DNA of 64,000 nt, taken from contig CM039001.1 of NCBI GenBank assembly GCA_017499595.2, forward strand, positions 1 to 64,000, written 5' to 3'. Made by a program: the position numbers and the translations under genes. Positions 1 to 49,735 of the stretch are shown one piece after another. Under the pieces are notes generated by a model, which saw nothing but the letters and a program-made list of their open reading frames with translations, had not been told where the DNA came from and searched no databases. This stretch comes from Psilocybe cubensis. Lineage: Eukaryota. The stretch's first letter is position 1, and each line of letters opens with the position of its first letter.

Positions 1-217
1 AAACCCTAAACCCTAAACCCTAAACCCTAAACCCTAAACCCTAAACCCTAAACCCTAAACCCTAAACCCTAAACCCTAAACCCTAAACCCTAAACCCTAA
101 ACCCTAAACCCTAAACCCTAAACCCTAAACCCTAAACCCTAAACCCTAAACCCTAAACCCTAAACCCCTAAACCCTAAAACCTAAACCCTAAACCCTAAA
201 CCCTAAACCCTAAACCC
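1..217. repeat. Terminal telomeric tract (CCCTAAA)n, i.e. TTTAGGG on the G strand
   Basis: About 30 tandem AAACCCT units from base 1. Variant units AAACCCCT (~162-169) and AAAACCT (~177-183). Confidence 0.98.
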
Positions 218-531
218 AGGTAAGCTATTTATACTCTTGACATGAGAATATTCCCATGTCACGGTTACTCGGAGCCACGTAACCAGAGTATTTTATATCC
301 ATGTGATTCACATCACAGTCAATAACCCACGATGTCAAAGAACAAAAGTGTTGGATCCACTTTTGACAGGTTACCATGTGCCACATCGACCCGTGACACT
401 CTGTTCATCAGAGACCTGTCTAACTTGACAATAAACATTGACAGATTTGTGATAGTCGGTAAGATACATGACAGCTGCGCAGCATCACTTCACGCGCTGT
501 CATCGGATGTCTAGAACATTCCTTCTAAGAA

Positions 532-1527
532 TAGCCACTGAAGAGTCTATAAAGACGAAAGGGCTGGTTGTTGGGATCCCCCAACAGCCCTCAAGTACTC
601 GTCCTCTCCCAAACTCCTGCCGCTTGTGCCTTCCCAACTCATCCGGGAGCCCTTTCGTCACTGATCTTGCCCTTGACTCGGGGACGTTTCATCGACATGT
701 TGGCTGCCTCACGGCAAGCGGGGCCCTTTTTCTTTCACTCGCTCACGCCTTCTATGTTGGGTTACGGAGGTCATACAAACTCGTTTTAGTCTAGCTGCGG
801 GGATATCCAGCTATGATGACTTTGTAATTCGAGGGCGCGCAGTTCTTCAATGGGTATGGACATCAGGTGAGAGTACACTGGGGGTTGTCAGGACCAGCTC
901 TGCTGGATACGCTCCTGGCAAGTCGGTTGCAGCCGGCGACACTACCGAATTGCTGGGACGTCCTAAAGCTTGTGGGTACCGCCGACCGCTGGAAACAGCC
1001 TAGGCACCGGTGGCGACCGGGTATGGTAACAATCCCCAAGATTCAGCGAAAGCTGGAATGGATAATCAGCAGCGAATCCGTAACGGTCACGCCGACGGAA
1101 GCGTTCAACGACTAGGTGGTAGTGGGGTCTTCGGATCTTAAGATATAGTCTTGGGAGTGGGGAAACCCACATCTGGTATCTAAACCGCGCCTCGCTGCTT
1201 ACGAGGACGGCCCGAAGTCCAGAACCGCTTAAAACGCGGGTGACCCGGCCTCCCCTTAGTAAAGGGAGTTAACACAAGGATGGACAAATAGTTCGTCGCC
1301 GGAAATGAACCTGTGGCTGTAATGGCTGATGTGGCGCCCCTTGGTAAAGGGCTTAAAGGGTATTAGCCTGCCATGTCCAATGGCATGAGAGTGTCCCTTG
1401 GTAAAGGACTTAATAGGCAATAGCCTGCTCTTTTGTCATGAGCGGTATGTAGTGATCGTTTGCCTGTACGGTAGCGCCCATTGCTTGCACTGGTCCACGC
1501 CCGTAAAAAATCACGAGCCGCTGGCTA
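532..1527 (+). ncRNA. Type I hammerhead ribozyme interrupted by a group I intron (copy 1)
   Basis: TAGCCA-CTGAAGA-GTCT(ATAA)AGAC-GAAA-GGGCTG...CAGCCC-T | 929-nt insert | C-TGGCTA. Removing 592-1520 restores the intact sequence seen at 5878-5944. Confidence 0.92.
592..1520 (+). ncRNA. Group I self-splicing intron, IC1-like, 929 nt (copy 1)
   Basis: Follows U591 and ends in G1520. Core elements: P AATTGCTGGGA 948-958, Q AATCAGCAGC 1064-1073, R GTTCAACGACTA 1103-1114, S AAGATATAGTC 1140-1150. P3 CACTACC/GGTAGTG, P7 GACTA/TAGTC, P8 with UUCG loop, P9 GTGGG-GAAA-CCCAC. IGS GGGGTTGT 881-888 pairs with exon ACAGCCCT, giving a U.G pair at the splice site. Confidence 0.93.
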
Positions 1528-1631
1528 CTTTCCATTTAACTCCCAGTTTAAACTAGTCGCTCGCACCTCGCTTCGCTCGGTGCTCGCTCCCCCCCTAAAC
1601 CCAACGACTTTGCTATTATCCATCAGCCACT

Positions 1632-4600
1632 ATGTCATCTCAATACTCTGCTGCTTTCTCTCGTGCCATGTCCCCCACCCTGGACGCACTCACCCAGGCC
1701 GTCGTCAACAACACCGTTTTCGGCGTCAACGATGAAGCAGGCCGCCATAACGCTCTGATCGACGAGCTGGCCACTGTGGTCATCAAAAAAATAGCTGAGT
1801 GCCGCTCCGTTGACCAAGTCATAGACTGCGTCTTTTTTGACTATCGTGCTGCCCTTAGGGAGTTTCTCCTCAACCTCGCATCGTGGTGCGATAAGAGGGA
1901 AACAGTCAAGGCTAGCCTCGAGCGCCTTGAATCTGCCGTTAGCGCAGGCAACACGCCCAATCGCCTTAAGGTGAAGGCACCCGAGTTCCAACTTACGAAG
2001 GAATTCGCGGATGCCGGGTCAGCGGAGGCTCTTCGAGTCTCCACTACGTTCTCTACCGCTCGTGACGCCTTCCAAAAGGCAATTAACGACGGCGCCATTC
2101 AGGCGAAAAAGGACGAGCTGACTTTTTGGGATGATAAATGCGCACTCAACTCTTGCTACGAAGCTGCTGCCCTCATCGTTAAGGCAACTTACGATGATCG
2201 CAAATCCAGCTACAAGCTCCCTGTTTTCTCTACAGATAACAAGGGAGTTCGACGTATAGCAGAGTGGGTAGTGTCTCCGCAAAAGAAAGCCGAATGCAGT
2301 GCGCTGCAAACCATACTGCCGGCGATCTTTTCTCACATCAAACAAATTGTCAACATGCGCCACCGCGCTTTGGCAATTAAGATTGAGAAAAAGCGGACGA
2401 CTGCGGCAACAGCCGATGTCGAGATGGCCGACGCGACCAAACCAGGTCCGTCGATTCAATCCCTTATTGATAAGGGCTTGAATGCACGTCTCAAGAAGCT
2501 CAACCTTGGATCTGTGGGCAAGAAGGCAAGTTTTCGTAACCCTTCACCCATAATTCTGGATACTAATTACTACTCTAATTACCCAGACTTTGTCTGGCCA
2601 GAATTCGTCCAAGGCTCCTCAACCTCAGGCCAAGAAAGCTGGCCCTTCGAAACCCAAGTCGTCGTCGACGCCTTCGCAACGCAAGCCTCAAACCAAGGCT
2701 TCCAACAAGGTCGACAACAAGAAGAAAGGGAAGGGGAGAGCTCCCGTCAAGAACGATCCAAAGGGAAAGGGAAAGGCAAGAGCCTAGATGCGCGGTCTAA
2801 TGTAGTACCTTTTACGTCGGTGAGACCCGCCTTCCCCAACTCTATTCCTGACGATATACTCACCATGACTAAAACAGACGCAGTTTCTTTCGTACACTTA
2901 CATACTCCAATATCATTCTTGTTGGCTGGCCAGTATCGTAGTAGTGTACATTGTAGTCCTGGTGTTTCTGTCCCTGTTGATGTAGCAAACGATCTCTCTC
3001 TCGGACTTAATTATATGTTTTTCACTCTGCCTTCTAAAAGTCTGATCATGCAAGCATGGAATGATTTCCAACGAAGAATAAGATGGCGTATCTATTTTTT
3101 GTTTAAGGAAGGCATGAATAAACCTTTTGATCCAGATTATGGAGTAAGCTCAAAAAAGAAAGAGAAACCTCCTGTATTACCGCAATATATGGAACTTGGC
3201 CTTTCGATGGGACGTCGGTACGTGCAACGCACGATCGCAAGTATCCCGGAAGAAGCCCTTACGGAGATGCGAAAGCACGCGTTCTCTCCTAAAAGGGACA
3301 AGATCCGTAAGTTTCTTATCGATAACAACTATGTTATTACGATGACAGATAAGAATCTTGGCCTCGCGGTGTCTGAACGCGACTGGATATTAAGGAATGA
3401 GCTCAATCTTCTTGAAGATGAACGTAATTACGAAGAGTTAGAATTCGAAGTTGCGCAAGAAGTTATGAAGAGCAAAATGATTCAGATGCAAACGCTCGCA
3501 CGTACTGTCGAAGATGAACATCTGTTTCTATTTGAACTTGGGTTGTCTCGATTCTTTCTATCGAATGTACCGGAAGACGGATCATCGTTCAAGTATCCTC
3601 AATTTCATGGTATACCTAAAATCCACAAGAAACCTACTGGATTTAGGCCCATAATTCCGTGTCACTCTGTAGTATTTAATCCTGCAGCCAAGTTTGTATC
3701 AAAAGAGCTTAAGCCGATTATTAAATCGACTCCTTCAATCATACACGGAACGAAGGATCTCTTTACGAGATTAAGCCAATTGCGTATAGACTCCAAAAGA
3801 CAATGGTATTTTGTCACTGGAGATGTAGTTGCTTTCTATCCCAATATTCCGTTGGACTTGTGCATCGAAATCGTTTGTAGTATGTACGAGGAATGGTTAC
3901 TCAACGCTTCGGAAGAAAACACTGCATTAGCCCATATTAATCCAAATTCGTTAGAGAATAACTTGGTTAAATTGGGCATCTTTAAACGTGCTATCGAGAT
4001 TGGCAATACGCAATTGATAACACAACATGGGTCTAGATATTTTAGACAAAAAAATGGCCTCGCAATGGGCGTCGCGGATTCTCCGGACCTTGCTAACCTC
4101 TTTGGAGCCCATTTTGAAATAAAGTCAAAAATCTTAGACCACCCAAACGTGGCCTTCTATGGAAGGTACATCGACGATTGTTTCGCAATTGTTTACGCCG
4201 AGTCCGAAGCACTTGCACTTAATCTTATTAAAGAAACAATAAAGTTCGATGGTTGTGTTATCGAATGGGCTGTTTCCTCGTCGGGATGTCAATTTCTCGA
4301 TGCTTTCATATTCAAGGAGTCTGGAAAACTTCATTGGAAGCCTTTTGTCAAGACAGGAAACAACCGAGAACGAGTTCCATGGGTATCACATCATCCTTTG
4401 GACGTCAAACGTGGCGTCTACATTGGAGAGTTATCCAGGTTAGCCGTGCTATGTAGTACCAAGGAAATCTACATCGGAGCAATTAGAGACCTTAACGCTC
4501 TCTATTTGATGCGCGGTTATCCCGAAAACCTAGTCATATCTTGGTGTAAGAAGAATATACAAGAACGTTGGGAAAAGCGATTCGCTTTACGAGTCGCAGA

Positions 4601-5162
4601 GCACGACGAATCCATTCTTGTACTTAAAACCAGATTTGATCAGGTATGGAATTGGTTTTCAGCTGCTGAACTTGGAAAAACTGTTACCGAGTACTGGTCG
4701 GCATGGTATGAACATGCCGAGAAAGGTTTGTATAGTGCAGACTCGTCCAGACCCCTTATCAAACCAGATCCAAATTACGTTCACGACCTCGATGATGTTC
4801 GCCCGGAGCTGTTCACACAGATCCTCGTGGACGGAGAAACTGAGTTCGTACCGGATTTGAGGAAGATAGGACTACTCGGAAGTCGTTGGATAGTATCGCG
4901 AAAACGCAATACTAATCTTTTCGACCTTGCAAATGTGTGGAAGAAAACAGTCTTTCGTAAACTGGATGAAGACATCGCTGAAAAAGGTGGTGTTGTTCCC
5001 GAAACTCAAAACGTTAATGAAACTTATCATTCTGCTTTAGTTGAAGCTACTGAGCAGATAAGTATCGAAAGTGATAACGAGATAATACTTCATAGACGTT
5101 CAATCTCACAAGAGAGGGAACATCCAGAATTTGGCAGAATATCCAAATCTTACAACCGATGA
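1632..5162 (+). CDS. PLE (Coprina-like) ORF1-reverse transcriptase, 1176 aa
   Basis: Motifs FHGIPKIHK..FRPII, VTGDVVAFYPNI, QKNGLAMG, YGRYIDDCF, FLD and thumb-like SHHP..KRG. No C-terminal GIY-YIG. Confidence 0.95.
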   Translation: MSSQYSAAFSRAMSPTLDALTQAVVNNTVFGVNDEAGRHNALIDELATVVIKKIAECRSVDQVIDCVFFDYRAALREFLLNLASWCDKRETVKASLERLESAVSAGNTPNRLKVKAPEFQLTKEFADAGSAEALRVSTTFSTARDAFQKAINDGAIQAKKDELTFWDDKCALNSCYEAAALIVKATYDDRKSSYKLPVFSTDNKGVRRIAEWVVSPQKKAECSALQTILPAIFSHIKQIVNMRHRALAIKIEKKRTTAATADVEMADATKPGPSIQSLIDKGLNARLKKLNLGSVGKKASFRNPSPIILDTNYYSNYPDFVWPEFVQGSSTSGQESWPFETQVVVDAFATQASNQGFQQGRQQEEREGESSRQERSKGKGKGKSLDARSNVVPFTSVRPAFPNSIPDDILTMTKTDAVSFVHLHTPISFLLAGQYRSSVHCSPGVSVPVDVANDLSLGLNYMFFTLPSKSLIMQAWNDFQRRIRWRIYFLFKEGMNKPFDPDYGVSSKKKEKPPVLPQYMELGLSMGRRYVQRTIASIPEEALTEMRKHAFSPKRDKIRKFLIDNNYVITMTDKNLGLAVSERDWILRNELNLLEDERNYEELEFEVAQEVMKSKMIQMQTLARTVEDEHLFLFELGLSRFFLSNVPEDGSSFKYPQFHGIPKIHKKPTGFRPIIPCHSVVFNPAAKFVSKELKPIIKSTPSIIHGTKDLFTRLSQLRIDSKRQWYFVTGDVVAFYPNIPLDLCIEIVCSMYEEWLLNASEENTALAHINPNSLENNLVKLGIFKRAIEIGNTQLITQHGSRYFRQKNGLAMGVADSPDLANLFGAHFEIKSKILDHPNVAFYGRYIDDCFAIVYAESEALALNLIKETIKFDGCVIEWAVSSSGCQFLDAFIFKESGKLHWKPFVKTGNNRERVPWVSHHPLDVKRGVYIGELSRLAVLCSTKEIYIGAIRDLNALYLMRGYPENLVISWCKKNIQERWEKRFALRVAEHDESILVLKTRFDQVWNWFSAAELGKTVTEYWSAWYEHAEKGLYSADSSRPLIKPDPNYVHDLDDVRPELFTQILVDGETEFVPDLRKIGLLGSRWIVSRKRNTNLFDLANVWKKTVFRKLDEDIAEKGGVVPETQNVNETYHSALVEATEQISIESDNEIILHRRSISQEREHPEFGRISKSYNR
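2526..2586 (+). other. Putative 61-nt GC-AG spliceosomal intron in the retroelement ORF (present in all full-length copies)
   Basis: AAG|GCAAGT donor, CTAAT branch-like motifs, CCCAG| acceptor. Splicing joins codon 298 in frame to the Lys-rich 2590-2787 ORF. Confidence 0.72.
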
Positions 5163-6012
5163 AAAGAATACTAGCGCTTAAGGCGTAAAGCATTAGAAAA
5201 AAACCCTAACCGTAAGTATTCCTTGCTATAAAGTAACAAACATCTACTTACAAGCAACACATTGGATTGAATAGCTAAACCTAAACCTAAACCCTAAACC
5301 CTAAACCCTAAACCCTAACCTAACCCCAACCCTAAGCTAACTAAGTCTAACCTTAGTAGGAAGTAAGGTAGGCGTGTGAACTTCCGAACGGCATGTGATT
5401 GTGAAGGGCCGGATCTAATTTAGTACATGGGAAAAGTTACTTAGTACTTCGGGAAAAGTTCCTTAGTACCGTGGAAACATTTTTGATGGACCGGATCATG
5501 AACTGTCCAATTAAGATTCACAACAATCAATCATTCTATTGTTTGATTGTTAGGTAAGGACCCAGGTAAGTTATTTATACTCTAGACATGTGAATATTCC
5601 CATGTCGCGGTTACTCGGAGCCACGTAACCAGAGTAATCTATATCCATGTGATTCACATCACAGTCAATAACCCACGATGTCAAAGAACAAAAGTGTTGG
5701 ATCCACTTTTGACAGGTTACCATGTGCCACATCGACCCGTGACACTCTGTTCATCAGAGACCTGTCTAACTTGACGATAAACATTGACAGATTTGTGATA
5801 GTCGGTAAGATACATGACAGCTGCGCAGCATCACTTCACGCGCTGTCATCGGATGTCTAGAACATTCCTTCTAAGAATAGCCACTGAAGAGTCTATAAAG
5901 ACGAAAGGGCTGGTTGTTGGGATCCCCCAACAGCCCTCTGGCTACTTTCCATTTAACTCCCAGTTTAAACTAGTCGCTCGCACCTCGCTTCGCTCGGTGC
6001 TCGCTCCCCCCC
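5163..6012 (+). repeat. 3' UTR / pseudo-LTR of the element
   Basis: Same block follows every ORF. It contains an internal degenerate telomeric tract (~5275-5352), hairpins and a hammerhead, and ends in CGCTCCCCCCCTAAACCC. Confidence 0.9.
5878..5944 (+). ncRNA. Intact type I hammerhead ribozyme
   Basis: Stem I TAGCCA/TGGCTA, core CTGAAGA and GAAA, stem II GTCT/AGAC, stem III GGGCTG/CAGCCC, cleavage triplet CUC. Confidence 0.93.
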
Positions 6013-6075
6013 TAAACCCTAAACCCTAAACCCTAAACCCTAAACCCTAAACCCTAAACCCTAAACCCTAAACCC
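6010..6075. repeat. Interstitial telomeric tract between elements
   Basis: About 9 perfect CCCTAAA units. Confidence 0.95.
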
Positions 6076-7958
6076 GTCAAAAATCTTAGACCACCCAAAC
6101 GTGGCCTTCTATGGAAGGTACATCGACGATTGTTTCGCAATTGTTTACGCCGAGTCCGAAGCACTTGCACTTAATCTTATTAAAGAAACAATAAAGTTCG
6201 ATGGTTGTGTTATCGAATGGGCTGTTTCCTCGTCGGGATGTCAATTTCTCGATGCTTTCATATTCAAGGAGTCTGGAAAACTTCATTGGAAGCCATTTGT
6301 CAAGACAGGAAACAACCGAGAACGAGTTCCATGGGTATCACATCATCCTTTGGACGTCAAACGTGGCGTCTACATTGGAGAGTTATCCAGGTTAGCCGTG
6401 CTATGTAGTACCAAGGAAATCTACATCGGAGCAATTAGAGACCTTAACGCTCTCTATTTGATGCGCGGTTATCCCGAAAACCTAGTCATGTCTTGGTGTA
6501 AGAAGAATATACAAGAACGTTGGGAAAAGCGATTCGCTTTACGAGTCGCAGAGCACGACGAATCCATTCTTGTACTTAAAACCAGATTTGATCAGGTATG
6601 GAATTGGTTTTCAGCTGCTGAACTTGGAAAAACTGTTACCGAGTACTGGTCGGCATGGTATGAACATGCCGAGAAAGGTTTGTATAGTGCAGACTCGTCC
6701 AGACCCCTTATCAAACCAGATCCAAATTACGTTCACGACCTCGATGATGTTCGCCCGGAGCTGTTCACACAGATCCTCGTGGACGGAGAAACTGAGTTCG
6801 TACCGGATTTGAGGAAGATAGGACTACTCGGAAGTCGTTGGATAGTATCGCGAAAACGCAATACTAATCTTTTCGACCTTGCAAATGTGTGGAAGAAAAC
6901 AGTCTTTCGTAAACTGGATGAAGACATCGCTGAAAAAGGTGGTGTTGTTCCCGAAACTCAAAACGTTAATGAAACTTATCATTCTGCTTTAGTTGAAGCT
7001 GCTGAACAGATAAGTATCGAAAGTGATAACGAGATAATACTTCATAGACGTTCAATCTCACAAGAGAGGGAACATCCAGAATTCGGCAGAATATCCAAAT
7101 CTTACAACCGATGAAAAGAATACTAGCGCGTAAGGCGTAAAGCATTAGAAAAAAACCCTAACCGTAAGTATTCCTTGCTACAAAGTAACAAACATCTACT
7201 TACAAGCAACACATTGGATTAAATAGCTAAACCTAAACCTAAACCCTAAACCCTAAACCCTAAGCCCTAACCTAACCCCAACCCTAAGCTAACTAAGTCT
7301 AACCTTAGTAGGAAGTAAGGTAGGCGTGTGAACTTCCGAAAGGCATGTGATTGTGAAGGGCCGGATCTAATTTAGTACATGGGAAAAGTTACTTAGTACC
7401 TCGGGAAAAGTTCCTTAGTACCGTGGAAACATTTTTGATGGACCGGATCATGAACTGTCCAATTAAGATTCACAACAATCAATCAATTGATTGTTAGGTA
7501 AGGACCCAGGTAAGCTATTTATACTCTTGACATGAGAATATTCCCATGTCACGGTTACTCGGAGCCACGTAACCAGAGTATTTTATATCCATGTGATTCA
7601 CATCACAGTCAATAACCCACGATGTCAAAGAACAAAAGTGTTGGATCCACTTTTGACAGGTTACCATGTGCCACATCGACCCGTGACACTCTGTTCATCA
7701 GAGATCTGTCTAACTTGACAATAAACATTGACAGATTTGTGATAGTCGGTAAGATACATGACAGCTGCGCAGCATCACTTCACGCGCTGTCATCGGATGT
7801 TCCAGAACATTCCTTCTAAGAATAGCCACTGAAGAGTCTATAAAGACGAAAGGGCTGGCTGCTGATAACAATCAACAGCCCTCTGGCCTTCTTTCCATTT
7901 AACTCACAGTTTAAACAAGTCGCTCGCACCTCGCTTCGCTCGGTGCTCGCTCCCCCCC
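6076..7958 (+). mobile_element. 5'-truncated PLE copy (RT C-terminal part 6076-7114 plus pLTR)
   Basis: Starts abruptly at GTCAAAAATC, just upstream of the YIDD motif, directly after telomeric repeats. Confidence 0.93.
7823..7887 (+). ncRNA. Intact hammerhead, stem III loop variant
   Basis: Same core. Stem III distal part reads GCTGCTGATAACAATCAA. Confidence 0.9.
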
Positions 7959-8014
7959 TAAACCCTAAACCCTAAAACCTAAACCCTAAACCCTAAACCC
8001 TAAACCCTAAACCC
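7956..8014. repeat. Interstitial telomeric tract
   Basis: CCCTAAA units including the AAAACCT variant also seen in the terminal tract. Confidence 0.95.
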
Positions 8015-8388
8015 AGGTAAGCTATTTATACTCTTGACATGAGAATATTCCCATGTCACGGTTACTCGGAGCCACGTAACCAGAGTATTTTATATCCATG
8101 TGATTCACATCACAGTCAATAACCCACGATGTCAAAGAACAAAAGTGTTGGATCCACTTTTGACAGGTTACCATGTGCCACATCGACCCGTGACACTCTG
8201 TTCATCAGAGACCTGTCTAACTTGACAATAAACATTGACAGATTTGTGATAGTCGGTAAGATACATGACAGCTGCGCAGCATCACTTCACGCGCTGTCAT
8301 CGGATGTCTAGAACATTCCTTCTAAGAATAGCCACTGAAGAGTCTATAAAGACGAAAGGGCTGGTTGTTGGGATCCCCCAACAGCCCT

Positions 8389-9317
8389 CAAGTACTCGTC
8401 CTCTCCCAAACTCCTGCCGCTTGTGCCTTCCCAACTCATCCGGGAGCCCTTTCGTCACTGATCTTGCCCTTGACTCGGGGACGTTTCATCGACATGTTGG
8501 CTGCCTCACGGCAAGCGGGGCCCTTTTTCTTTCACTCGCTCACGCCTTCTATGTTGGGTTACGGAGGTCATACAAACTCGTTTTAGTCTAGCTGCGGGGA
8601 TATCCAGCTATGATGACTTTGTAATTCGAGGGCGCGCAGTTCTTCAATGGGTATGGACATCAGGTGAGAGTACACTGGGGGTTGTCAGGACCAGCTCTGC
8701 TGGATACGCTCCTGGCAAGTCGGTTGCAGCCGGCGACACTACCGAATTGCTGGGACGTCCTAAAGCTTGTGGGTACCGCCGACCGCTGGAAACAGCCTAG
8801 GCACCGGTGGCGACCGGGTATGGTAACAATCCCCAAGATTCAGCGAAAGCTGGAATGGATAATCAGCAGCGAATCCGTAACGGTCACGCCGACGGAAGCG
8901 TTCAACGACTAGGTGGTAGTGGGGTCTTCGGATCTTAAGATATAGTCTTGGGAGTGGGGAAACCCACATCTGGTATCTAAACCGCGCCTCGCTGCTTACG
9001 AGGACGGCCCGAAGTCCAGAACCGCTTAAAACGCGGGTGACCCGGCCTCCCCTTAGTAAAGGGAGTTAACACAAGGATGGACAAATAGTTCGTCGCCGGA
9101 AATGAACCTGTGGCTGTAATGGCTGATGTGGCGCCCCTTGGTAAAGGGCTTAAAGGGTATTAGCCTGCCATGTCCAATGGCATGAGAGTGTCCCTTGGTA
9201 AAGGACTTAATAGGCAATAGCCTGCTCTTTTGTCATGAGCGGTATGTAGTGATCGTTTGCCTGTACGGTAGCGCCCATTGCTTGCACTGGTCCACGCCCG
9301 TAAAAAATCACGAGCCG
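8389..9317 (+). ncRNA. Group I intron, copy 2 (929 nt), interrupting the hammerhead at ~8329-9322
   Basis: Apparently identical to 592-1520, with the same CAGCCCT|...GAGCCG|CTGGC junctions. Confidence 0.93.
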
Positions 9318-9431
9318 CTGGCCTTCTTTCTATTTCAAACTCACAGTTTAAACTAGTCGCTCGCACCTCGCTTCGCTCGGTGCTCGCTCCCCCCCTAAAC
9401 CCAACGACTTTGCTATCACCCATCAGTTACC

Positions 9432-12400
9432 ATGTCATCCCAATACTCTGCTGCATTCTCTCGTGCCATGTCCCCTACCCTGGACGCACTCACCCAGGCC
9501 GTCGTCAACAACACTGTCTTCGGCGTCAACGATGAAGCAGGCCGCCATAACGCTCTTATCGACGAGCTGGCCACTGTGGTCATCAAAAAAATAGCTGAGT
9601 GCCGCTCCGTTGACCAAGTCATAGACTGCGTCTTTTTTGACTATCGTGCTGCCCTCAGGGAGTTTCTCCTCAACCTCGCATCGTGGTGCGACAAGAGGGA
9701 AACAGTCAAGGCTAGCCTCGAGCGCCTTGAATCTGCCGTTAGCGCAGGCAACACGCCCAATCGCCTTAAGGTGAAGGCACCCGAGTTCCAACTTACGAAG
9801 GAATTCGCGGATGCCGGGTCAGCGGAGGCTCTTCGAGTCTCCACTACGTTCTCTTCCGCTCGTGATGCCTTCCAAAAGGCAATTAACGACGGCGCCGTTC
9901 AGGCGAAAAAGGACGAGCTGGCTTTTTGGGATGATAAATGCGCGCTCAACTCTTGCTACGAAGCTGCTGCCCTCATCGTTAAGGCAACTTACGATGATCG
10001 CAAATCCAGCTACAAGCTCCCTGTTTTCTCTACAGACAACAAGGGAGTTCGACGTATAGCAGAGTGGGTAGTGTCTCCGCAAAAGAAAGCCGAATGCAGT
10101 GCGCTGCAAACTATACTGCCGGCGATCTTTTCTCATATCAAACAGATTGTCAACATGCGCCACCGCGCCTTGGCAATTAAGATTGAGAAAAAGCGGACGA
10201 CTGCGGCAACAGCCGATGTCGAGATGGCCGATGCGACCAAACCAGGTCCATCGATTCAATCCCTTATTGATAAGGGCTTGAATGCACGTCTCAAAAAGCT
10301 CAACCTTGGATCTGTGGGCAAGAAGGCAAGTTTTCGTAACCCTTCACCCATAATTCTGGACACTAATTATTACTCTAATTACCCAGACTTTGTCTGGCCA
10401 GAATTCGTCCAAGGCTCCTCAACCTCAGGCCAGGAAAGCTGGCCCTTCGAAACCCAAGTCGTCGTCGACGCCTTCGCAGAGGAAGCCTCAAACCAAGGCT
10501 TCCAACAAGGTCGACAACAAGAAGAAAGGGAAGGGGAGAGCTCCCGTCAAGAACAACGATCCAAAGGGAAAGGGAAAGGCAAGAGCCTAGACGCGCGGTC
10601 TACTGTAGCATCATTTACGTCGGTGAGACCCGCCTTCCCCAACTCTATTCCTGACGATATACTCACCATGACTAAAACAGACGCAGTTTCTTTTGTACAC
10701 CTCAATACCCCGATTTCATTCTTATTGGCTGGCCAGTATAGATCTAGTGTACACTGTAGTCCTGGTGTTTCGGTCCCTGTTGATGTAGCAAATGATTTAT
10801 CTCTTGGACTCAATTATATGTTTTTTACACTGCCTTCTAAAAGTCTGATCATGCAAGCATGGAATGATTTTCAACGAAGAATAAGATGGCGTATCTATTT
10901 TTTGTTTAAAGAAGGCATGAATAAACCTTTCGATCCAGACTATGGAGTAAGCTCTAAAAAGAAAGAGAAACCTCCAATGTTACCCGCAATTTATGGAACT
11001 TGGCCTTTCAATGGGACGTCGGTACGTTATTAAAACGATCGCAAGTATCCCGGAAGAAGCCCTTAAAGAGATGCGAAAGCACGCGTTCTCTCCTAAAAGG
11101 GACAAGATCCAAAAGTTTCTTTTCGATAACAACTATGTTATTACGATGACAGATAAGAATCTTGGCCTCGCGGTGTCTGAACGCGACTGGATATTAAGGA
11201 ATGAGCTCAATCTTCTTGAAGATGAACGCAACTACGAAGAGTTAGAATTCGAAGTTGCGCAAGAAGTTATGAAGAGCAAAATGATTCAGATGCAAACTCT
11301 CGCACGTACCGTCGAAGATGAACATCTGTTTCTATTTGAACTTGGGTTGTCTCGATTCTTTCTATCGAATGTACCGGAAGACGGATCATCGTTCAAGTAT
11401 CCTCAATTTCATGGTATACCTAAAATCCACAAGAAACCTACTGGATTTAGGCCCATAATTCCGTGTCACTCTGTAGTATTTAATCCTGCAGCCAAGTTTG
11501 TATCAAAAGAGCTTAAGCCGATTATTAAATCGACTCCTTCAATCATTCACGGAACGAAGGATCTCTTTACGAGATTAAGCCAATTGCGTATAGACCCCAA
11601 ACGACAATGGTATTTTGTCACCGGGGATGTAGTTGCTTTCTATCCCAATATTCCGTTGGACTTGTGCATCGAAATCGTTTGTAATATGTACGAGGAATGG
11701 TTACTCAACGCTTCGGAAGAAAACACTGCATTAGCCCATATTAATCCAAATTCGTTAGAGAATAACTTGGTTAAATTGGGCATCTTTAAACGTGCTATCG
11801 AGATTGGCAATACGCAATTGATAACACAACATGGGTCTAGATATTTTAGACAAAAAAATGGCCTCGCAATGGGCGTCGCGGATTCTCCGGACCTTGCTAA
11901 CCTCTTTGGAGCCCATTTTGAAATAAAGTCAAAAATCTTAGACCACCCAAACGTGGCCTTCTATGGAAGGTACATCGACGATTGTTTCGCAATTGTTTAC
12001 GCCGAGTCCGAAGCACTTGCACTTAATCTTATTAAAGAAACAATAAAGTTCGATGGTTGTGTTATCGAATGGGCTGTTTCCTCGTCGGGATGTCAATTTC
12101 TCGATGCTTTCATATTCAAGGAGTCTGGAAAACTTCATTGGAAGCCATTTGTCAAGACAGGAAACAACCGAGAACGAGTTCCATGGGTATCACATCATCC
12201 TTTGGACGTCAAACGTGGCGTCTACATTGGAGAGTTATCCAGGTTAGCCGTGCTATGTAGTACCAAGGAAATCTACATCGGAGCAATTAGAGACCTTAAC
12301 GCTCTCTATTTGATGCGCGGTTATCCCGAAAACCTAGTCATGTCTTGGTGTAAGAAGAATATACAAGAACGTTGGGAAAAGCGATTCGCTTTACGAGTCG

Positions 12401-12966
12401 CAGAGCACGACGAATCCATTCTTGTACTTAAAACCAGATTTGATCAGGTATGGAATTGGTTTTCAGCTGCTGAACTTGGAAAGACTGTTACCGAGTACTG
12501 GTCGGCATGGTATGAACATGCCGAGAAAGGTCTGTATAGTGCAGACTCGTCCAGACCCCTTATCAAACCAGATCCAAATTACGTTCACGACCTCGATGAT
12601 GTTCGCCCGGAGCTGTTCACACAGATCCTCGTGGACGGAGAAACTGAGTTCGTACCGGATTTGAGGAAGATAGGACTACTCGGAAGTCGTTGGATAGTAT
12701 CGCGAAAGCGCAATACTAATCTTTTCGACCTTGCAAATGTGTGGAAGAAAACAGTCTTTCGTAAACTGGATGAAAACATCGCTGAAAAAGGTGGTGTTGT
12801 TCCCGAAACTCAAAACGTTAATGAAACTTATCATTCTGCTCTAGTTGAAGCTGCTGAACAGATAAGTATCGAAAGTGATAACGAGATAATACTTCATAGA
12901 CGTTCAATCTCACAAGAGAGGGAACATCCAGAATTCGGCAGAATATCCAAATCTTACAACCGATGA
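9432..12966 (+). pseudogene. PLE ORF1-RT copy with a +1 frameshift near 10983-10985
   Basis: TTACCCGCAA versus TTACCGCAA in intact copies. Split into 533-aa and 657-aa ORFs. Could be a sequencing error. Confidence 0.85.
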
Positions 12967-13675
12967 AAAGAATACTAGCGCGTAAGGCGTAAAGCATTAG
13001 AAAAAAACCCTAACCGTAAGTATTCCTTGCTATAAAGTAACAAACATCTACTTACAAGCAACACTTTGGATTAAATAGCTAAACCTAAACCCTAAACCCT
13101 AAACCCTAAACCCTAACCTAACCCCAACCCTAAGCTAACTAAGTCTAACCTTAGTAGGAAGTAAGGTAGGCGTGTGAACTTCCGAACGGCATGTGATTGT
13201 GAAGGGCCGGATCTAATTTAGTACATGGGAAAAGTTACTTAGTACTTCGGGAAAAGTTCCTTAGTACCGTGGAAACATTTTTGATGGACCGGATCATGAA
13301 CTGTCCAATTAAGATTCACAACAATCAATCATTCTATTGTTTGATTGTTAGGTAAGGACCCAGGTAAGCTATTTATACTCTAGACATGTGAATATTCCCA
13401 TGTCGCGGTTACTCGGAGCCACGTAACCAGAGTAATCTATATCCATGTGATTCACATCACAGTCAATAACCCACGATGTCAAAGAACAAAAGTGTTGGAT
13501 CCACTTTTGACAGGTTACCATGTGCCACATCGACCCGTGACACTCTGTTCATCAGAGACCTGTCTAACTTGACAATAAACATTGACAGATTTGTGATAGT
13601 CGGTAAGATACATGACAGCTGCGCAGCATCACTTCACGCGCTGTCATCGGATGTCTAGAACATTCCTTCTAAGAA

Positions 13676-13740
13676 TAGCCACTGAAGAGTCTATAAAGAC
13701 GAAAGGGCTGGTTGTTGGGATCCCCCAACAGCCCTCTGGC
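13676..13740 (+). ncRNA. Intact hammerhead ribozyme
   Basis: GCCA-CTGAAGA...GAAA-GGGCTG...CAGCCCTC-TGGC. Confidence 0.9.
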
Positions 13741-14422
13741 CTTCTTTCTATTTCAAACTCACAGTTTAAACTAGTCGCTCGCACCTCGCTTCGCTCGGTG
13801 CTCGCTCCCCCCCTAAACCCTAAACCCTAAACCTAAACCTAAACCCTAAACCCTAAACCCTAAGCCCTAACCTAACCCCAACCCTAAGCTAACTAAGTCT
13901 AACCTTAGTAGGAAGTAAGGTAGGCGTGTGAACTTCCGAAAGGCATGTGATTGTGAAGGGCCGGATCTAATTTAGTACATGGGAAAAGTTACTTAGTACC
14001 TCGGGAAAAGTTCCTTAGTACCGTGGAAACATTTTTGATGGACCGGATCATGAACTGTCCAATTAAGATTCACAACAATCAATCAATTGATTGTTAGGTA
14101 AGGACCCAGGTAAGCTATTTATACTCTTGACATGAGAATATTCCCATGTCACGGTTACTCGGAGCCACGTAACCAGAGTATTTTATATCCATGTGATTCA
14201 CATCACAGTCAATAACCCACGATGTCAAAGAACAAAAGTGTTGGATCCACTTTTGACAGGTTACCATGTGCCACATCGACCCGTGACACTCTGTTCATCA
14301 GAGATCTATCTAACTTGACAATAAACATTGACAGATTTGTGATAGTCGGTAAGATACATGACAGCTGCGCAGCATCACTTCACGCGCTGTCATCGGATGT
14401 TCCAGAACATTCCTTCTAAGAA

Positions 14423-28492: not shown

Positions 28493-28540
28493 CCCTAAAC
28501 CCTAAACCCTAAACCCTAAACCCTAAACCCTAAACCCTAA
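28493..28540. repeat. Innermost telomeric tract (former chromosome end)
   Basis: About 7 CCCTAAA units joining the array to subtelomeric DNA. Confidence 0.95.
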
Positions 28541-28542
28541 TA

Positions 28543-30387
28543 ACAGACGGAGCGCATACTTTAATGCAAATGCAGTCTGTGATGTCATGCTATTGACTGC
28601 CATTTCAGAAGACTTTACGAGACGTGCTTACTCCAAGAGTCACAATCTCGATGCAGGTCAACACCAAACAAAAGTAGAACCATCGAAATCTGCACTGTTC
28701 AAATCTCAACATTTGTGCACACGGAGGGTTTGCCGCAGTTGCGTAACGGTTGCAAATTGCGAATCGGGACTAGCAAATTTTGGCCCGATGACAGTTATAG
28801 TGCGCTGTAAATTTGAAATTGAAGGAGTAATGCATACTTCTTGAACAATTAAACAGTTACATGATTAAATTGAACGAAAGCCATGCGAAAAAGATATTTC
28901 CAGTACACTCGTGTTAATGGGTGCTTCAGTTACCACCCCACAACACGCAACAAGCCCACGTCTGCACTCCGTAAGTTAAAGCATACATAGATCAAATACC
29001 CCGCCATGCGTGTCAGAGCGGAGTTTGAATGTCCTTGACAACAGCAAGGACAAACAACTGGACACTTGTCATCTTCCACCACCGTGAACTCTCTGTTCCC
29101 CCAGCCACTTAAACAACAGCATGAGAATTGTAGTACGTGACTGGGCAGATGTGATGCAGGATAGCAAGGTCAAGGCACAGAGGAGGGAAGAGGAGCGTCG
29201 AGGTGAGTGGTTTTTATTCAATGTTTGTTTTTTTGCCTGGAACGGACACACGGAAATCCCTGCAAGCCTCCGCCTCCATCTCTATTACCTCTATCCCCCT
29301 CTCTTTCACACACTACTGGAATACACTCTACATCGACGCCAGTGCAGCTAAACTGGGTCCATTTGACAGTTCGTGCGCTGCCTGCGTCGTGTCGGATGAT
29401 CGAGTCTGTGCTCTCTGGTGCAGTGGAAATGTTGGTTTCGCTATCTCGCTTTCCCTATGTTGTTCCCTGTACAAGTCTATACAGATATTCATGCGTTATA
29501 TGCTACCCTGTATGTACGACGTCGAGCTTGACATAGACGCCAGCACCTCTCATCCGGTTTCACCTGTTTGCTGTCATCTGTGGGTGTCTTAGTACTGGTC
29601 AGTCAGATTGTATCAGAACCATTGTACCTGCACAATCCGGTCCTCCTGAACACAGGCTCAAACAACGGACACTGCCCTTGGTGTCTCTACTACAATACTG
29701 TTGGCGTTTCCCCTGCAAGGTCTCGGTTGAGCACACCCTACACCGTTGTATGCCTCCCACATTTGCACTCTAATGAATGTACTCTCCGACCATTGTTTTC
29801 CTGATTGTGTCTTATGTGCTCTCCATTGCCTCTACCAGCACCACCTTTCCATCCCCGTCAGCGTCCCCATCCTCGTCTTTGTCTGCTTTGCCCTTCACAC
29901 AATCTATACTGATCGTACATGCGTCGCATCGTCTTGAACAAGAAGAAGAACACAATACGGCTCGCAAAATCAATGAAAAGGCACATCTAGGGGTAAGATC
30001 ACCAACAGTAACGCGCGGGGAGACGAGGGTACTGTTTGAAAGACTCGTTGACCTCGAAATGTGCGCATATATGCGCTTCAACATCAAGGGAAGTACATAT
30101 ACAATGATGCTTACGGGTTCAATAGATGTCGTTTGGGTTTAGATGGAGGTGAGGCTGATCGATCCTGTTTAGAAGCTGGGTATGCATCCAGGAGTGTTGC
30201 ACAATGTCTTTGCAAGTGAGTGGTTCGACTCGCATGCACATCATGATGGGCCTTGAGACACCTTGCTCGCAATTTCATTCGCAGTTGTCACTTTCTGCGG
30301 TTCGATGTGTTTTTTGTAAGGGCTGAGCAACCAAAGGCCGCGAAGGAAGAGGATCGCACTTTTTGCAGTTCATTATCCTGCGTGCTT
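28543..30387 (+). repeat. Segmental duplication, direct copy of 62156-64000
   Basis: Identical ORF-track translations at a constant offset of 33613 bp. Confidence 0.95.
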
Positions 30388-30879: not shown

Positions 30880-31496
30880 TGCTGCGCGGCGGGGTGGGGG
30901 AGTCGGCGGCAGCGGCAGCGGCGGCGGAGGCGCGGGGGTGGCGGTGCAATGACATGCAGCAATGTGTGTGTCGTTGTGGGCGGCGAGCGAAGGTGGTGGG
31001 GGCAGCAACAGGCAGCGACGAGCAGTGAACAACAACGACACGCGTCCAGTCAGGTGACCTCTCTAGGTGGGACCGACGCTGGAGGCCGGCCTCCACTCGC
31101 GCGTATGACGCGCGTACGAATCGAGGCCGGCCTCAGGTGGCCTCGACGTGTTTATTTTTAGATGGAGGCCGGCCTCCAGTGCCTGTCAAAAATTATTTTT
31201 AGACGGAGGCCGGCCTCCAATGCCTGTCAAAGTTATTTTTAGACGGAGGCCGGCCTCCAGTGACCTCCATCTATTTGGAGGCCGGCCTCCAGTGACCTCC
31301 ATCAATTTGGAGGCTGGCCTTGGTAAAATACACCTTTAATTGCATAGCACCTCCGTATGTACAAAATAAAATATTTTGAAAGTGTATTTGGGGGTTTTTG
31401 GGGTCCAGGAATCCGAATCTGCCATCAGATTTCTGGAATTCTGAACAGGAGGCCCAATGCAACAAAGGCCCCCCCTTCGGGGGGGAATAAGCCTAG
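30880..31496 (+). mobile_element. GC-rich non-autonomous element, copy A (palindrome array, hairpin-CTAG end, Helitron-like)
   Basis: GGAGGCCGGCCTCC array, AT-rich spacer, CCCCCCC-TTC-GGGGGGG hairpin, then AATAAGCCTAG. 5' boundary approximate. Confidence 0.55.
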
Positions 31497-31574
31497 GGTA
31501 AGATGACTAGTTATAAAAAATTTAACAAAATTACAGTACAGCAAGGCCGAGATGTATCAAAGACAAGACAGCAA

Positions 31575-32823
31575 AATGGCAGCGACAGGAGGCGAGTAGA
31601 GGCAGCGCGGCGGCAGCGACAGGCGGCGACGGCGGGACGACAGGCGGCGACGGCGGAATGACAGGCGGGGAGGGGAGGCGGCAGCGGCAGCGGCGGCCCG
31701 GTGTGGCGGCGCAACAACACGCAGCAGAGTGCGTGTCGTGGTGGGCGGCGAGTGGACGCGACGGCGGGACGACGCGCGGTGACGTCGTGACGACAGGCGG
31801 CGACGGCGGGACGACAGGCGTTGACAGCGGAATGACAGGCGGCGAGGCAGGCGGCAGCGGCAGCGGCGGCCCGGTGTGGCGGTGCAACAACACGCAGCAG
31901 AGTGCGTGTCGTGGTGGGCGGCGAGTGGACGCGACGGCGGGACGACGCGCGGTGACGTCGTGACGACAGGCGACGACGGCGGGATAACACGCGGTGACGG
32001 CTGAACGACATGCGGCAACGGCGGGACGACAGGCGGCGACGGCGGGACGACACGCGCTGACGGCGGAATGACAGGCGGCGAGGGAAGGCGGCAGCGGCAT
32101 GACAGGGGACGAGGAGAGGCGGCAGCAGCAGCAGCGGCCCGGGTGTGGCGGCACAACAACACGCAGCAGAGTGCGTGTTGTGGTGGGCGGCGACTAGACG
32201 CGACGTCGGGACGACGCGCGGTGACGTCGTGACGACAGGCGGCGACGGCGGGATGACACGCGGTGACGGCTGAACGACAGGCGTCGAGTGGAGGTGGCGG
32301 CAGCAGCAGTGGCCCGGAGGTGGCAGCGCAACAACATGCAGTGGCAAGCGCAGGCGTCGGGCAGACGGCGAGCGCAAGCGTTGGGACGGCAAGCGCTGGC
32401 GTTGGGACGGCAAGCGCTGGCATCGGGACGGCGAGCGCTGGCATCGGGACGGCGAGCGCTGGCATCGGGAGACAGGCGGGAGGCCGGCCTCCAGTGCCTG
32501 TCAAAAATTTATTTTTAGACGGAGGCCGGCCTCCAGTGCCTGTCAAAAATTTATTTTTAGACGGAGGCCGGCCTCCAGTGCCTGTCAAAAGTTATTTTTA
32601 GACGGAGGCCGGCCTCCAGTGGCCTCCATCAATTTGGAGGCCGGCCTCCGTAAATTACACATTTAATTATGTAGCACCTCCGTATGTACAAAATAAAATA
32701 TTTTGAAAGTGTATTTGGGGGTTTTTGGGGTCCAGGAATCCGAATCTGCCATCAGATTTCAGGATTTCTGAACAGGAGGCCCAATGCAATGAAGGCCCCC
32801 CCTTCGGGGGGGAATAAGCCTAG
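31575..32823 (+). mobile_element. GC-rich element, copy B, with expanded minisatellite
   Basis: GACAGGCGGCGACGGCGG-type and GCGCTGGCATCGGGACGGCGA tandem repeats, then the same palindrome array and end. 5' boundary approximate. Confidence 0.55.
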
Positions 32824-34119
32824 CCTCGACGATTGCTCAACGAATCCACACACCGTGTTGCAGGTGTTTTAAAGAGGTCAGTAACTACATTCTGAAGCCA
32901 TTTTCATACTCACTCACATTTTGTTTGACGTGCCGCCACCTTTGGATGATACTTTGCACGGAAGGTCAATGTTGTTGAAAGCCCTTGAGAAGGTTAGCAA
33001 CCCTGTCAATCTCGTTTTAACACCGTACTCACTGACGTGTCCAGCCTGAATGCCTCATCTCGCGTTGAACGTGGCCCACCGACGTGTCCTCCATCCATCC
33101 CAGCTCGCAAATGACGCGTTCAAGTGCTCGTCTCGTTCTGCAATTCACCTGTGTCTCGGAGGCTGTCCGCACCACCATCCATTCCCGCACGCCCGCATGC
33201 TGTGCCACCTCGTGAAGACTTGCTTGTAGAACATTGAAGGGGCTTCAAACGGTGAGTAACTATGTGCGCATCATATTAATATTCTACTCACCAATATGGC
33301 CAGCATACCCGGCTGATGTTGTGTTGGACACACTCCGCCAACACAGGCTGCATGCATCCCGCCACATCCGCATGCTGTTCCTCCTCGAAAACATGTCGAA
33401 CGTTGAAGGACCTTGAGAAGGTCAGTGAGGTGTTAATGTTGTCATGATGCCGTACTCACCAACATAGCCAGCGTACTCGCACCATGCCGTGTTGTGTTCA
33501 ACAAGGTCCGCCCACCCACTCATTCACCTGTGTCCCGCCTTGACAACAACATGATGGAATCACATTGAAGCTTCTCGCACGCCGTCCCGTCTTGACAACG
33601 ATACATTTTCCAACATCCAAGAACGATGGAAAGTCTGTAAGCACTCACCAAACTTGACATCTGAATCTATTGACACCTCCCCAAAGTCAACTTGCATCGC
33701 TATCCACCATGTACCCTGCATTTTGCGAGTGTTTTGAGCTTCCGTTTCTTCCGAAAATTCCCATTTGCAAAGTGCAAATGAGACCGAGTGCTGCTCACCT
33801 AAAGCCGTCTGGTCTACATTGCATTGCAGTGTAGTTGTGATTAGTCAAACATATGTGTAATTTCATGAATATTTTGCCACCATTCAATGACGACCATGGT
33901 TAGATGTCTGGGACAATGGGAATATGGAGATGGGAGGAGGGGAGCGAGAGCGAGAGCAATGAAGTGGCGTAGGTGGGAGACAAAGGCACTGCGTATATGC
34001 ATCATAGTACGCACATGCAAGGTGGTGGATGACGTGTCTCAACAGGTGGACTCAATGCGCGGAGGATGGACACTGAACTGCACTGACACCTTACAAAATG
34101 TACAGAGGAGCTGCAGGTT

Positions 34120-34888
34120 CGGAGTTTGAATGTCCTTGACAACAGCAAGGACAAACAACGCGACTCTTGGGCGGCGAGTGTCGGCGGTGGCGGGGGCTGC
34201 AACTGCGGCTGCGTGGGGGTGGCAGTGCAACGACACACAGCAGAGTGTGTGTCGTTGTGGGCGGCAAGTGGAGGCGGCGGCAGGACGAAAGGTGGCAAGT
34301 GGAGGCGGCGCGGCGGCAGCAACAGGCGACGAGTGGAGGCCGCGGTGGCAGAAGCGGCCCGGAGTGGCGGCACAATAACACGCAGCGGCAAGCAAAGGCG
34401 TCGGGACGGCGAGCGCAGGCGTCGGGCAGGCGGCGAGCGCAAGTGTTGGGACGGTGAGCGCAGGCGTTAGGAGACAGGCGGGAGGCCGGCCTCCACTCGT
34501 GCGTACGACGCGCGTACAAGTCGAGGCTGGTCTCAGGTGGCCTCGACACATTTATTTTTAGACGGAGGCCGGCCTCCAGTGCCTGTCAAAAAATATTTTT
34601 AGACGGAGGCCGGCCTCCAGTGACCTCCATCTATTTGGAGGCCGGCCTCCAGTGACCTCCATCAATTTGGAGGCCGGCCTCCAGTGGCCTCCATCAATTT
34701 GGAGGCCGGCCTCGGTAAAATACACATTTAATTACATAGCACCTCCGTATGTACAAAATAAAATATTTTGAAAATGTATTTGGGGGTTTTTGGGGTCCAG
34801 GAATCCGAATCTGGCATCAGATTTCAGCAATTCTGAATAGAATGCCCAATGCAACGAAGGCCCCCCCTTCGAGGGGGAATAAGCTTAG
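34120..34888 (+). mobile_element. GC-rich element, copy C
   Basis: Begins near the shared GGAGTTTGAATGTCCTTGACAACAGCAAGGAC motif. Same array. Ends AATAAGCTTAG. Confidence 0.55.
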
Positions 34889-49344: not shown

Positions 49345-49735
49345 GAGTGGCATTTGTTAAGCGCCCAAACCAACAACCTTGTATATTTCAAACACAAAGA
49401 AGATATTTCTCGCACAATCGATTATCAAACGGTAATACAGAGTAAGGGACTGCATTACTAACATGATATGTCGAGACAGAACTGACTTGAATGAGATTTG
49501 CAAACAGGATGACGAGAACCAGTCGATGGATCTCATGCGGCCTCGTCCTCCAGCTCCAATTCCGCGTTTCTAGCGTGAAGGACGCCATTTCCTCGCATCT
49601 CATGCTGTCATTAATAAACATACGCCGTGAGTACTAATACGACATTAGGGGCGACATTTGGAAAGCGAGAATGCATTGAATGGACGGTACGGGAATCATA
49701 TACCTCGTATTTCCCATCCATACTTTGCACGTATG
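49345..49735. repeat. Dispersed repeat, diverged copy at ~55791-56190
   Basis: Shared AGTGGCATT..GTTAAGCGCCCAAA...CCAGCTCCAATTCCGCGTTTCTAGCGTGAA...ATCATATACCTCGTATTTCCC. Confidence 0.8.

Follow-up and report, generated by a model that had tools for sequence, protein, structure and literature searches.

A group I intron inside the hammerhead ribozyme of telomeric Penelope-like elements of Psilocybe cubensis, and its probable entry by reverse splicing

How does a group I intron come to lie in the catalytic core of another ribozyme, in the leader of a nuclear retrotransposon? This question is raised by the first 64,000 nucleotides of contig CM039001.1 of Psilocybe cubensis (assembly GCA_017499595.2), the stretch analysed here and called the window. 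Positions 1-28540 of the window are a 28.5-kb head-to-tail array of Penelope-like elements (PLEs) on the + strand, in which the pseudo-long terminal repeats (pLTRs) carry hammerhead ribozymes. We found that two of these hammerheads are split by a group I intron. We consider it probable, at roughly 60%, that the intron was reverse-spliced into element RNA, was fixed in DNA by the reverse transcriptase (RT) of the element, and spreads as a module of leader plus intron. We read the intron as a parasite of a parasite rather than as a proven regulatory device.

The intron and the hammerhead that it interrupts

The 5' half of the hammerhead, GCCACTGAAGAGTCTATAAAGACGAAAGGGCTGG, was found ten times on the + strand of the window with 0 mismatches (0 expected in shuffles); this 34-nt half reads GCCACTGAAGAG...GGGCTGG. 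Eight of the ten pLTR hammerheads are intact and continue as ...CAGC(C/T)CT-C-TGGC. The other two, starting at 534 and 8331, are interrupted by 929 nt. Insert 1 (592-1520) lies between T591 and C1521 and insert 2 (8389-9317) between T8388 and C9318, and the two inserts are 100% identical. Within the hammerhead, the insert is placed between U16.1 and C17 of the CUC triplet, with G1520 next to C1521. The boundary is ambiguous by 1 nt, because a C opens the insert and a C also opens the 3' flank. It was drawn as 592-1520 because in that reading alone the insert is preceded by U and ends in G. The ATG of the RT open reading frame (ORF) at 1632 is 111 nt past the insert end. An earlier note, made from the letters alone, had claimed ten pLTR hammerheads with two interrupted by 929 nt, an insert between U16.1 and C17 that follows U and ends in G, and a distance of about 110 nt to the RT start codon. 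Exact-match counts and the 592-1520 boundary agreed with each of these claims.

The identity of the insert was examined with Rfam covariance models. The group I model RF00028 matched 876-1172 and 8673-8969 at 70.9 bits (gathering threshold 50, E 5.6e-16, model positions 1-253 of 253), and these were the only gathering-level Rfam matches in the 64 kb. By the covariance model, the insert is a bona fide group I intron. The alignment displayed P3, P4-P6, J8/7 (AAGAUAUAGUC), P8 and a GAAA-capped P9; the pairings of P3, P7 and P8 were read from it by eye, P7 being absent from the nested structure of the model. P7 is formed by G1110-A1114 and U1146-C1150, with G1110-C1150 as the guanosine-binding pair and C1109 bulged, and J8/7 was aligned to the consensus. 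P8 is a 4-bp stem with a UUCG loop. When the P4-P6 region was folded alone, it gave P4, P5, a three-way P5abc-like extension with two GAAA loops, and P6. The group I identity, the P3-P9 pairings and the P5abc-like helices that had been proposed from the letters were thus recovered from the alignment and the subdomain fold. Minimum free energy (MFE) folds of subdomains contained the helices of P2-P2.1, P5abc and a P9.1/9.2-type extension. These folds suggest an IC1-like architecture with P2/P2.1, a P5abc-like domain and a long P9 extension. The G+C content of the intron core is 57%. A Pfam scan of 7 of the 17 stop-to-stop frames with a length of 40 aa or more gave no credible remnant of a homing endonuclease in the intron (best E 0.11). 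Weak matches inside the intron to suhB (E 0.098) and fungal SRP (E 5.9) were taken as chance. The 3' part of the intron also has tandem Y-shaped hairpin modules at about 1328-1377 and 1380-1439 (CCCUUGGUAAAGG... plus a second hairpin), which are 85% alike over 34 nt, and a third, partial copy at 1252-1266.

We next considered how the intron recognizes its site. The local P1 in the RF00028 alignment was poor, and the real P1 is a long-range helix that encloses a 270-nt loop insert. Exon A584-U591 pairs with G881-U888 of the internal guide sequence (IGS) over 8 bp, with the wobble U591.G881 at the splice site, as the earlier note had described. The helix continues with C592-G880 and A593-U879 and then, past a 1x2 loop, with 595-600/871-876. 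With this extension, the P1 duplex was calculated at -23.2 kcal/mol, compared to -17.3 for the competing helix III hairpin. Among the 1174 U-ending sites of the element 1 sense RNA, the hammerhead site ACAGCCCU is the only one with at most one non-obligatory wobble to the IGS. A second contact was noticed post hoc: intron positions 648-659 (AGCCCUUUCGUC) are a perfect 12-nt complement of hammerhead positions 554-565 (GACGAAAGGGCU), which comprise the helix II 3' strand, the GAA and the start of helix III. This duplex (-23.5 kcal/mol) formed in the unconstrained MFE structure of 520-1540, and a 12-nt antisense match was reached in 5 of 1000 dinucleotide shuffles. Helix I (532-537/1522-1527) is still able to pair across the intron. 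As modelled, P1 and the 648-659 pairing fit a hammerhead that would be off until the intron is spliced.

For fungal PLEs, type I hammerheads have been described in which helix III is large and helices I and II are short (Cervera & de la Pena 2014, PMC4209133, in its available part). In an alignment of six window copies and four copies from related metagenome elements, the core (CUGANGA ... GAAA ... UH, with three helices and helix I open) was invariant in all ten sequences. The 15 pairs of helices I-III were 97.3% paired, five of them with compensatory changes, and none of 500 shuffles matched this. These results support a hammerhead that is real and of type I, though sub-threshold in Rfam, and self-cleavage after position 17 is predicted. 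Over 60 nt on its upstream side and over the 82-nt R, the intact copy in the downstream pLTR of the same element has exactly the flanking letters of the interrupted one. The intact copy at 5872-5948 is therefore the natural equivalent of ligated exons.

Four public sequencing runs were compared with positions 230-1900 of the window. In the raw genomic reads of run X22, the intron was evenly covered at about 79-119, the leader/pLTR at about 1240-1610 and the ORF at about 290-390. By this depth, the intron is present in about 7% of pLTRs and is not at the copy number of ribosomal DNA (rDNA). Contigs of run X9 contained the intron pieces 675-1085, 1097-1247 and 1267-1471, with 1, 5 and 0 differing letters, respectively. 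The continuous X22 coverage and the X9 contigs show that the intron is present in independent DNA data. The X22 reads had intron variants at 607, 733, 1136, 1275, 1287 and 1417, and small indels in the P1-loop insert, which indicates more than one intron allele (at least two diverged). Through the variant 1136 T>C, the P8 pair G1127.U1136 becomes G-C. The exact intron-less joint from 591 to 1521 was present in 99 X22 reads and also in X9 and X11 contigs. In addition, nine X22 reads (seven start points, shorter side up to 74 nt) contained a head-to-tail intron junction, 1520 to 592, in DNA. This junction, seen in one run, is as expected of a reverse-transcribed full-length intron circle or of a second reverse splicing.

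The leader and intron module in the telomeric array

The two intron-bearing elements were compared by aligning 158-6071 with 7956-13870. Of 133 differences, none fell in 166-1523 (1358 nt). They begin at 1524-1526 and continue at about 2.9% (131 positions in about 4550 nt). The identical module thus comprises the leader and the complete intron, preceded by about 52 nt of irregular telomere repeats, while the element bodies differ, and its breakpoint is within 5 nt of both the hammerhead cleavage site and the 3' splice site. R was identical to the element's own downstream R (0/82) in four of the five elements (1, 2, 3 and 5); in element 1, these are 1521-1602 and 5938-6019. Elements 3 and 5, which have no intron, also match their own downstream copy exactly over the 370 nt that precede the site, whereas the leaders of the intron-bearing elements 1 and 2 differ from their own downstream pLTR at 7 and 5 of 370 positions. 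Across the hammerhead sites from 534 to 28362, variants of helix III (upstream) and of R (downstream) reassort, intron-less copies included, which is an indirect sign of cleavage at this position.

Among these elements, the hammerhead site appears to serve generally as a point of recombination or template switching. From these comparisons we infer that the cleavage site, which is also the 3' splice site, acts as a joint between independently derived RNAs, probably through template switching of the RT at ribozyme-made RNA ends. The presence of an identical module on two bodies suggests that an RNA end was made at this site with the intron still present. Such an end could have been made either by 3' splice-site hydrolysis or by the hammerhead. 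In the available part of PMC3679873, 3' splice-site hydrolysis is the first step of the known full-length circle pathway.

As judged from its sequence, the locus is a telomeric, endonuclease (EN)-less Penelope-like array of Coprina-type organization. Each unit has an ORF of about 1176 aa, an 850-nt 3' untranslated region with the hammerhead, an 82-nt R ending CCCCCCCTAAACCC and a short telomeric tract. The EN-deficient, telomere-attached Coprina and Athena elements share such an organization, as far as PMC8557442 and PMC13159263 are available. The 1176-aa product is 99% identical to proteins named from Psilocybe cubensis, and the named ones among its 317 homologues are called 'reverse transcriptase domain-containing'. 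A sub-fragment of the ORF matched RVT_1 at 28.3 bits, just below the cut-off of 29.6. Pfam on the whole ORF gave no match, and no other family or endonuclease (GIY-YIG) domain was found in it. The array, the telomere tracts and the RT ORF confirmed the telomeric Penelope-like setting, with hammerheads in the pLTRs, that had been proposed earlier. The coordinates of the features are collected in Table 1.

Table 1. Features of the intron-bearing element and of the second module, in window coordinates
Feature	Position	Strand	Description
Terminal telomere tract	1..217	+	about 30 copies of the 7-mer CCCTAAA
Leader	218..591	+	5'-truncated upstream pLTR plus 5' exon; begins directly past the telomere repeats, at the point where the second module also begins (8011)
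Hammerhead 5' portion	532..591	+	helix I strand 532-537 UAGCCA; core 538-544 CUGAAGA; helix II 545-556 (GUCU-AUAA-AGAC); GAA 557-559; helix III 560-591, ending in U16.1
5' exon strand of P1	584..591	+	ACAGCCCU; doubles as 3' strand of hammerhead helix III
Group I intron	592..1520	+	929 nt; no ORF and no trace of an endonuclease; terminal G (omega-G) at G1520
P1-loop insert	601..870	+	270 nt; closed by P1 extension 592-600/871-880
Catalytic core	876..1172	+	RF00028 match; P2 889-917; P2.1 922-937; P3 940-946/1118-1124; P4 950-956/1066-1072; P5 960-963/1060-1063; P5abc-like 969-1057 with two GAAA loops; P6 1073-1103; P7 1110-1114/1146-1150; P8 1126-1129/1134-1137 (UUCG loop); P9 1157-1170 (GAAA loop)
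Internal guide sequence	881..888	+	GGGGUUGU; G881 pairs with U591
3' peripheral extension	1173..1519	+	347 nt; two duplicated Y-shaped modules
3' exon	1521..1602	+	C17 is 1521; helix I strand 1522-1527 UGGCUA; 82-nt R ending CCCCCCCTAAACCC
Reverse-transcriptase ORF	1632..5162	+	intact; 1176 aa; YIDD motif
Intact hammerhead, downstream pLTR of the same element	5872..5948	+	RAGATH-1-hammerhead 29.1 bits, E 0.005
Second leader and intron module	8011..9402	+	intron 8389-9317; same sequence as 214-1523, on a different R variant and element body

Other features of the window were also recorded. The telomere repeat is a 7-mer (TTTAGGG type), not a 6-mer. The last approximately 55 nt of the terminal tract (163-217) are irregular and are common to the tract at 7956-8010. 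A short telomere tract follows each element (for example 6010-6064, 7956-8010, 13811-13863 and 28493-28540), and a further short tract lies about 120 nt past each ORF stop (for example 5280-5311). The RT ORF of the second intron-bearing element is frameshifted, with overlapping frames at 9432-11033 and 10993-12966. Positions 28543-30387 and 62156-64000 are a 1845-nt direct repeat of 100% identity that reaches the window end. It starts exactly at the end of the element array, and its second copy is preceded by degenerate telomere-like repeats (about 61880-62020). Either the old chromosome end was duplicated as a segment or the assembly is at fault here. In the non-telomeric part of the window, at 31078-34888, 49344-49734 and 55017-56192, there is a dispersed family of repeats of about 350-790 nt with 83-91% identity.

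Explanations for the interrupted hammerhead

Reverse splicing followed by reverse transcription is a proposed, unproven route of RNA-level mobility in the available part of PMC3679873. For the present locus, we propose that a free or circular intron RNA would reverse-splice into element RNA where the transcript matches the IGS best, at ACAGCCCU followed by C. The element's own RT would copy the unspliced RNA onto a chromosome end. The leader and intron module would then be joined to new element bodies by RT template switching, at RNA ends made at the hammerhead or the 3' splice site. In the resulting transcript, the intron would split the hammerhead core, and P1 and 648-659 would compete for both strands of helix III, so that the hammerhead would be off. 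If the intron then spliced itself out precisely, the restored hammerhead would be the same as the intact one at 5880. The best IGS match, together with the precise boundaries after U and at G, argues for reverse splicing, and fixation in DNA could follow because the host RNA supplies its own RT. A further claim is that the intron would be an active ribozyme that owes its mobility to a telomerase-like retrotransposon as vehicle, by reverse splicing (perhaps as a full-length circle), writing by the RT and re-attachment of the 3'-hydrolysed module by template switching, and that it would also form an ordered two-ribozyme switch. We hold this larger claim only tentatively.

Several observations weigh against reverse splicing or against parts of the proposed mechanism. 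The sole RNA run examined (X19) yielded one 178-nt contig, which came from an intron-less pLTR and spanned the uncleaved site. The exon-IGS match emphasized in the earlier note stood as a real 8-bp pairing, but not as a rare one: since the IGS is all G/U, 8/8 pairing with wobbles occurred at 8 of the 1174 U-ending sites. The target ACAGCCCU lies inside a stable hairpin that is transcribed 290 nt before the IGS, the unconstrained MFE structure of the precursor lacked P1, and inspection of the intron and its exons gave no convincing P10. The P1-loop insert 601-870 and the 3' extension 1173-1519 were no stabler than shuffles (z -0.18 and -0.89, respectively). As the two intron copies of the window are identical, the window yields no intron covariation. 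No close relative of the intron was found by BLAST against 120 loci, which gave only 36-57-nt core motifs. The core pattern GTTCAACGACTA...AAGATATAGTC, the P7 and J8/7 motif pair, was present in at least 114 IMG/VR contigs, many of them in giant-virus bins; the pattern is generic and thus gives no provenance for the intron. Some of those contigs carry several copies of it, and group I introns with such a core are common there. For the element itself, six related loci (59-71% protein identity) were found in JGI metagenomes and none in IMG/VR. A group I intron was present in 0 of the 6 metagenome loci. The hammerhead was uninterrupted in all four of the loci that include it, and their helix III sequences do not offer the ACAGCCCU target. 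Covariation and the invariant core supported the hammerhead, but its Rfam scores stayed under the gathering thresholds. The intact copy (5859-5943) matched RAGATH-1-hammerhead end to end at 29.1 bits against a threshold of 56.3 and Hammerhead_3 at 19.5 against 48.5, and the interrupted copy retained only a partial 19.5-bit match. Finally, DNA recombination with a breakpoint within 5 nt of the site could replace template switching as the origin of the module.

The same observations bear on other explanations of the locus. The earlier note had put forward the idea of an adaptive two-step ribozyme cascade, in which the intron serves as a timer or switch that delays separation of the capped leader or controls monomer release. 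A two-step cascade is plausible from the sequence: the core triplet is split by the intron, P1 takes the 3' strand of helix III, the 12-nt antisense segment covers the core and the 5' strand, exon ligation would yield the same sequence as in the intact copy at 5880, and helix I could hold the exons together without P10. As an adaptive device, however, we think it unlikely. The intron is in only two of the ten window pLTRs and in about 7% of the X22 pLTR depth, the four related elements with a visible hammerhead lack it, and intron-less elements with intact ORFs indicate that the element can do without it. The module is joined at the cleavage site, which suggests that processing takes place there with the intron still in position, and if the hammerhead made that end, the cascade is contradicted. 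Another PLE inserted in vitro without the need for hammerhead cleavage (PMC11167929, in its available part). It is less likely still that the intron is an inert passenger, integrated a single time and no longer splicing, with dead copies spread by break-induced replication, gene conversion or unequal exchange. The identical stretch of about 52 nt of irregular telomere does fit copying of DNA or of a long RNA rather than fresh synthesis by telomerase, helix III is transcribed before the IGS, the MFE structure lacks P1, and the X19 RNA run yielded no support for splicing. Against this, the core is intact at 70.9 bits, and X22 contains at least two diverged intron alleles. A chance breakpoint within 5 nt of the site would be expected at roughly 10 in 5900 in the 5.9-kb homology, and the head-to-tail junction in nine X22 reads is hard to make without ribozyme chemistry.

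That junction also shows that circle-like junctions exist in DNA, as would be needed if the RT had captured an intron circle, jumping from the cleaved body end (U1.1) to the circle, making one turn (A593...G1520-C592) and continuing on the leader end at C17. The 1-nt C ambiguity permits an insert exactly at the cleavage site as a circular permutation with the same outcome in DNA, and copies without the intron also show reassorted leader and R variants at the hammerhead site. We regard this explanation as very improbable, because exactly one turn is required with no guiding homology, and the IGS-exon complementarity, with one wobble beyond the obligatory U.G, is left as a coincidence. An assembly artefact, or a mitochondrial or rDNA fragment misplaced in the contig, is hardly credible. 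Subtelomeric repeats are hard to assemble and 28543-30387 is duplicated at 100% at 62156-64000, but no positive sign of an artefact was seen. The two intron copies have different 3' flanks, the intron depth is continuous in X22, and intron pieces are present in X9 contigs. The core has 57% G+C, and no rRNA family matched at gathering thresholds in the 64-kb window. Reverse splicing into the element RNA is the reading that we prefer.

Known systems and meaning

The Tetrahymena large subunit (LSU) intron is an example of the IC1-type group I introns of nuclear rDNA. In the available part of PMC3679873, introns of this class share with the present one an RF00028 core, a U.G wobble in P1, a terminal G, a P5abc-like domain and GAAA loops, and likewise need no intron-encoded protein. 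The present intron differs in residing at low copy in the untranslated leader of a telomeric retrotransposon, and in having a 270-nt P1-loop insert, a 347-nt 3' extension and no evident P10. Twin-ribozyme introns of Didymium and Naegleria nest a lariat-capping ribozyme within a splicing ribozyme (PMC4167309 and PMC1464144, as far as available). They resemble this locus in having two nested catalytic RNAs per transcript, with the processing of one affecting the other. The arrangement is reversed here: the group I intron sits within a hammerhead core, and it is a retrotransposon that contributes the outer ribozyme. No GIR1-like Rfam match was found in 400-1700 at E up to 10, and the Pfam scan of 7 frames found no endonuclease gene.

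The hammerheads of fungal PLEs in PMC4209133 resemble those of the window: they are of type I, lie in the pLTR and combine a large helix III with short helices I and II. The available text of that paper names group I introns only with regard to the GIY-YIG endonuclease and describes no interrupted hammerhead. As reported there in citing Arkhipova et al. 2003, spliceosomal introns are retained in Penelope elements, so that in both cases a retroelement of this class carries an intron through RNA-based copying. Here, in contrast, the intron is of the self-splicing group I class and is placed in a ribozyme core. The mammalian Clec2 3' untranslated regions contain a discontinuous hammerhead, whose halves are hundreds of nucleotides apart. 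In that case, the spacer replaces a helix loop and the ribozyme forms, whereas the present insert lies between 16.1 and 17.

Ectopic insertion of rDNA introns has been explained by 4-8 nt of complementarity between the 5' exon and the IGS (Bhattacharya et al. 2005, PMC1299323), and in the available part of that study one of the site pairs has the 5' exon CCCU, as here. Their evidence was phylogenetic and within rRNA, whereas the recipient RNA here encodes an RT and integrates at chromosome ends. According to the available part of PMC3679873, the complete route of reverse splicing, reverse transcription and integration is without end-to-end evidence; the RT of the recipient and its integration at chromosome ends supply the steps that this source calls unevidenced.

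Nuclear group I introns as known are all in rRNA genes in the available parts of PMC3679873 and PMC8395846, which agrees with the earlier statement that they are essentially confined there. A full-text literature search, with supplements outside its scope, found no group I intron described in any Penelope-like element or hammerhead, or at any other place outside nuclear rDNA, and thus the earlier view that the arrangement lacks a prior description held. The genomic niche of this intron differs from that of known nuclear group I introns, as its flanks are a PLE pLTR by a telomere. The parts are of known kinds, and the arrangement and the genomic niche appear to be new.

If the larger claim of an active mobile ribozyme is correct, the locus would be the first natural record of the complete route of reverse splicing, reverse transcription and integration for a group I intron, the first case of a nuclear group I intron beyond rDNA, and an example of group I splicing that licenses hammerhead cleavage. 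The presence of a canonical group I core in a non-ribosomal, RT-encoding nuclear transcript makes the reverse-splicing hypothesis testable in a cultivable fungus. In addition, nature has here placed one ribozyme within the catalytic junction of another. Such a construct can help in studying what the PLE hammerheads, still unexplained, do and how ribozyme-made RNA ends feed template switching. It looks like a natural trace of group I introns spreading through RNA and reverse transcription.

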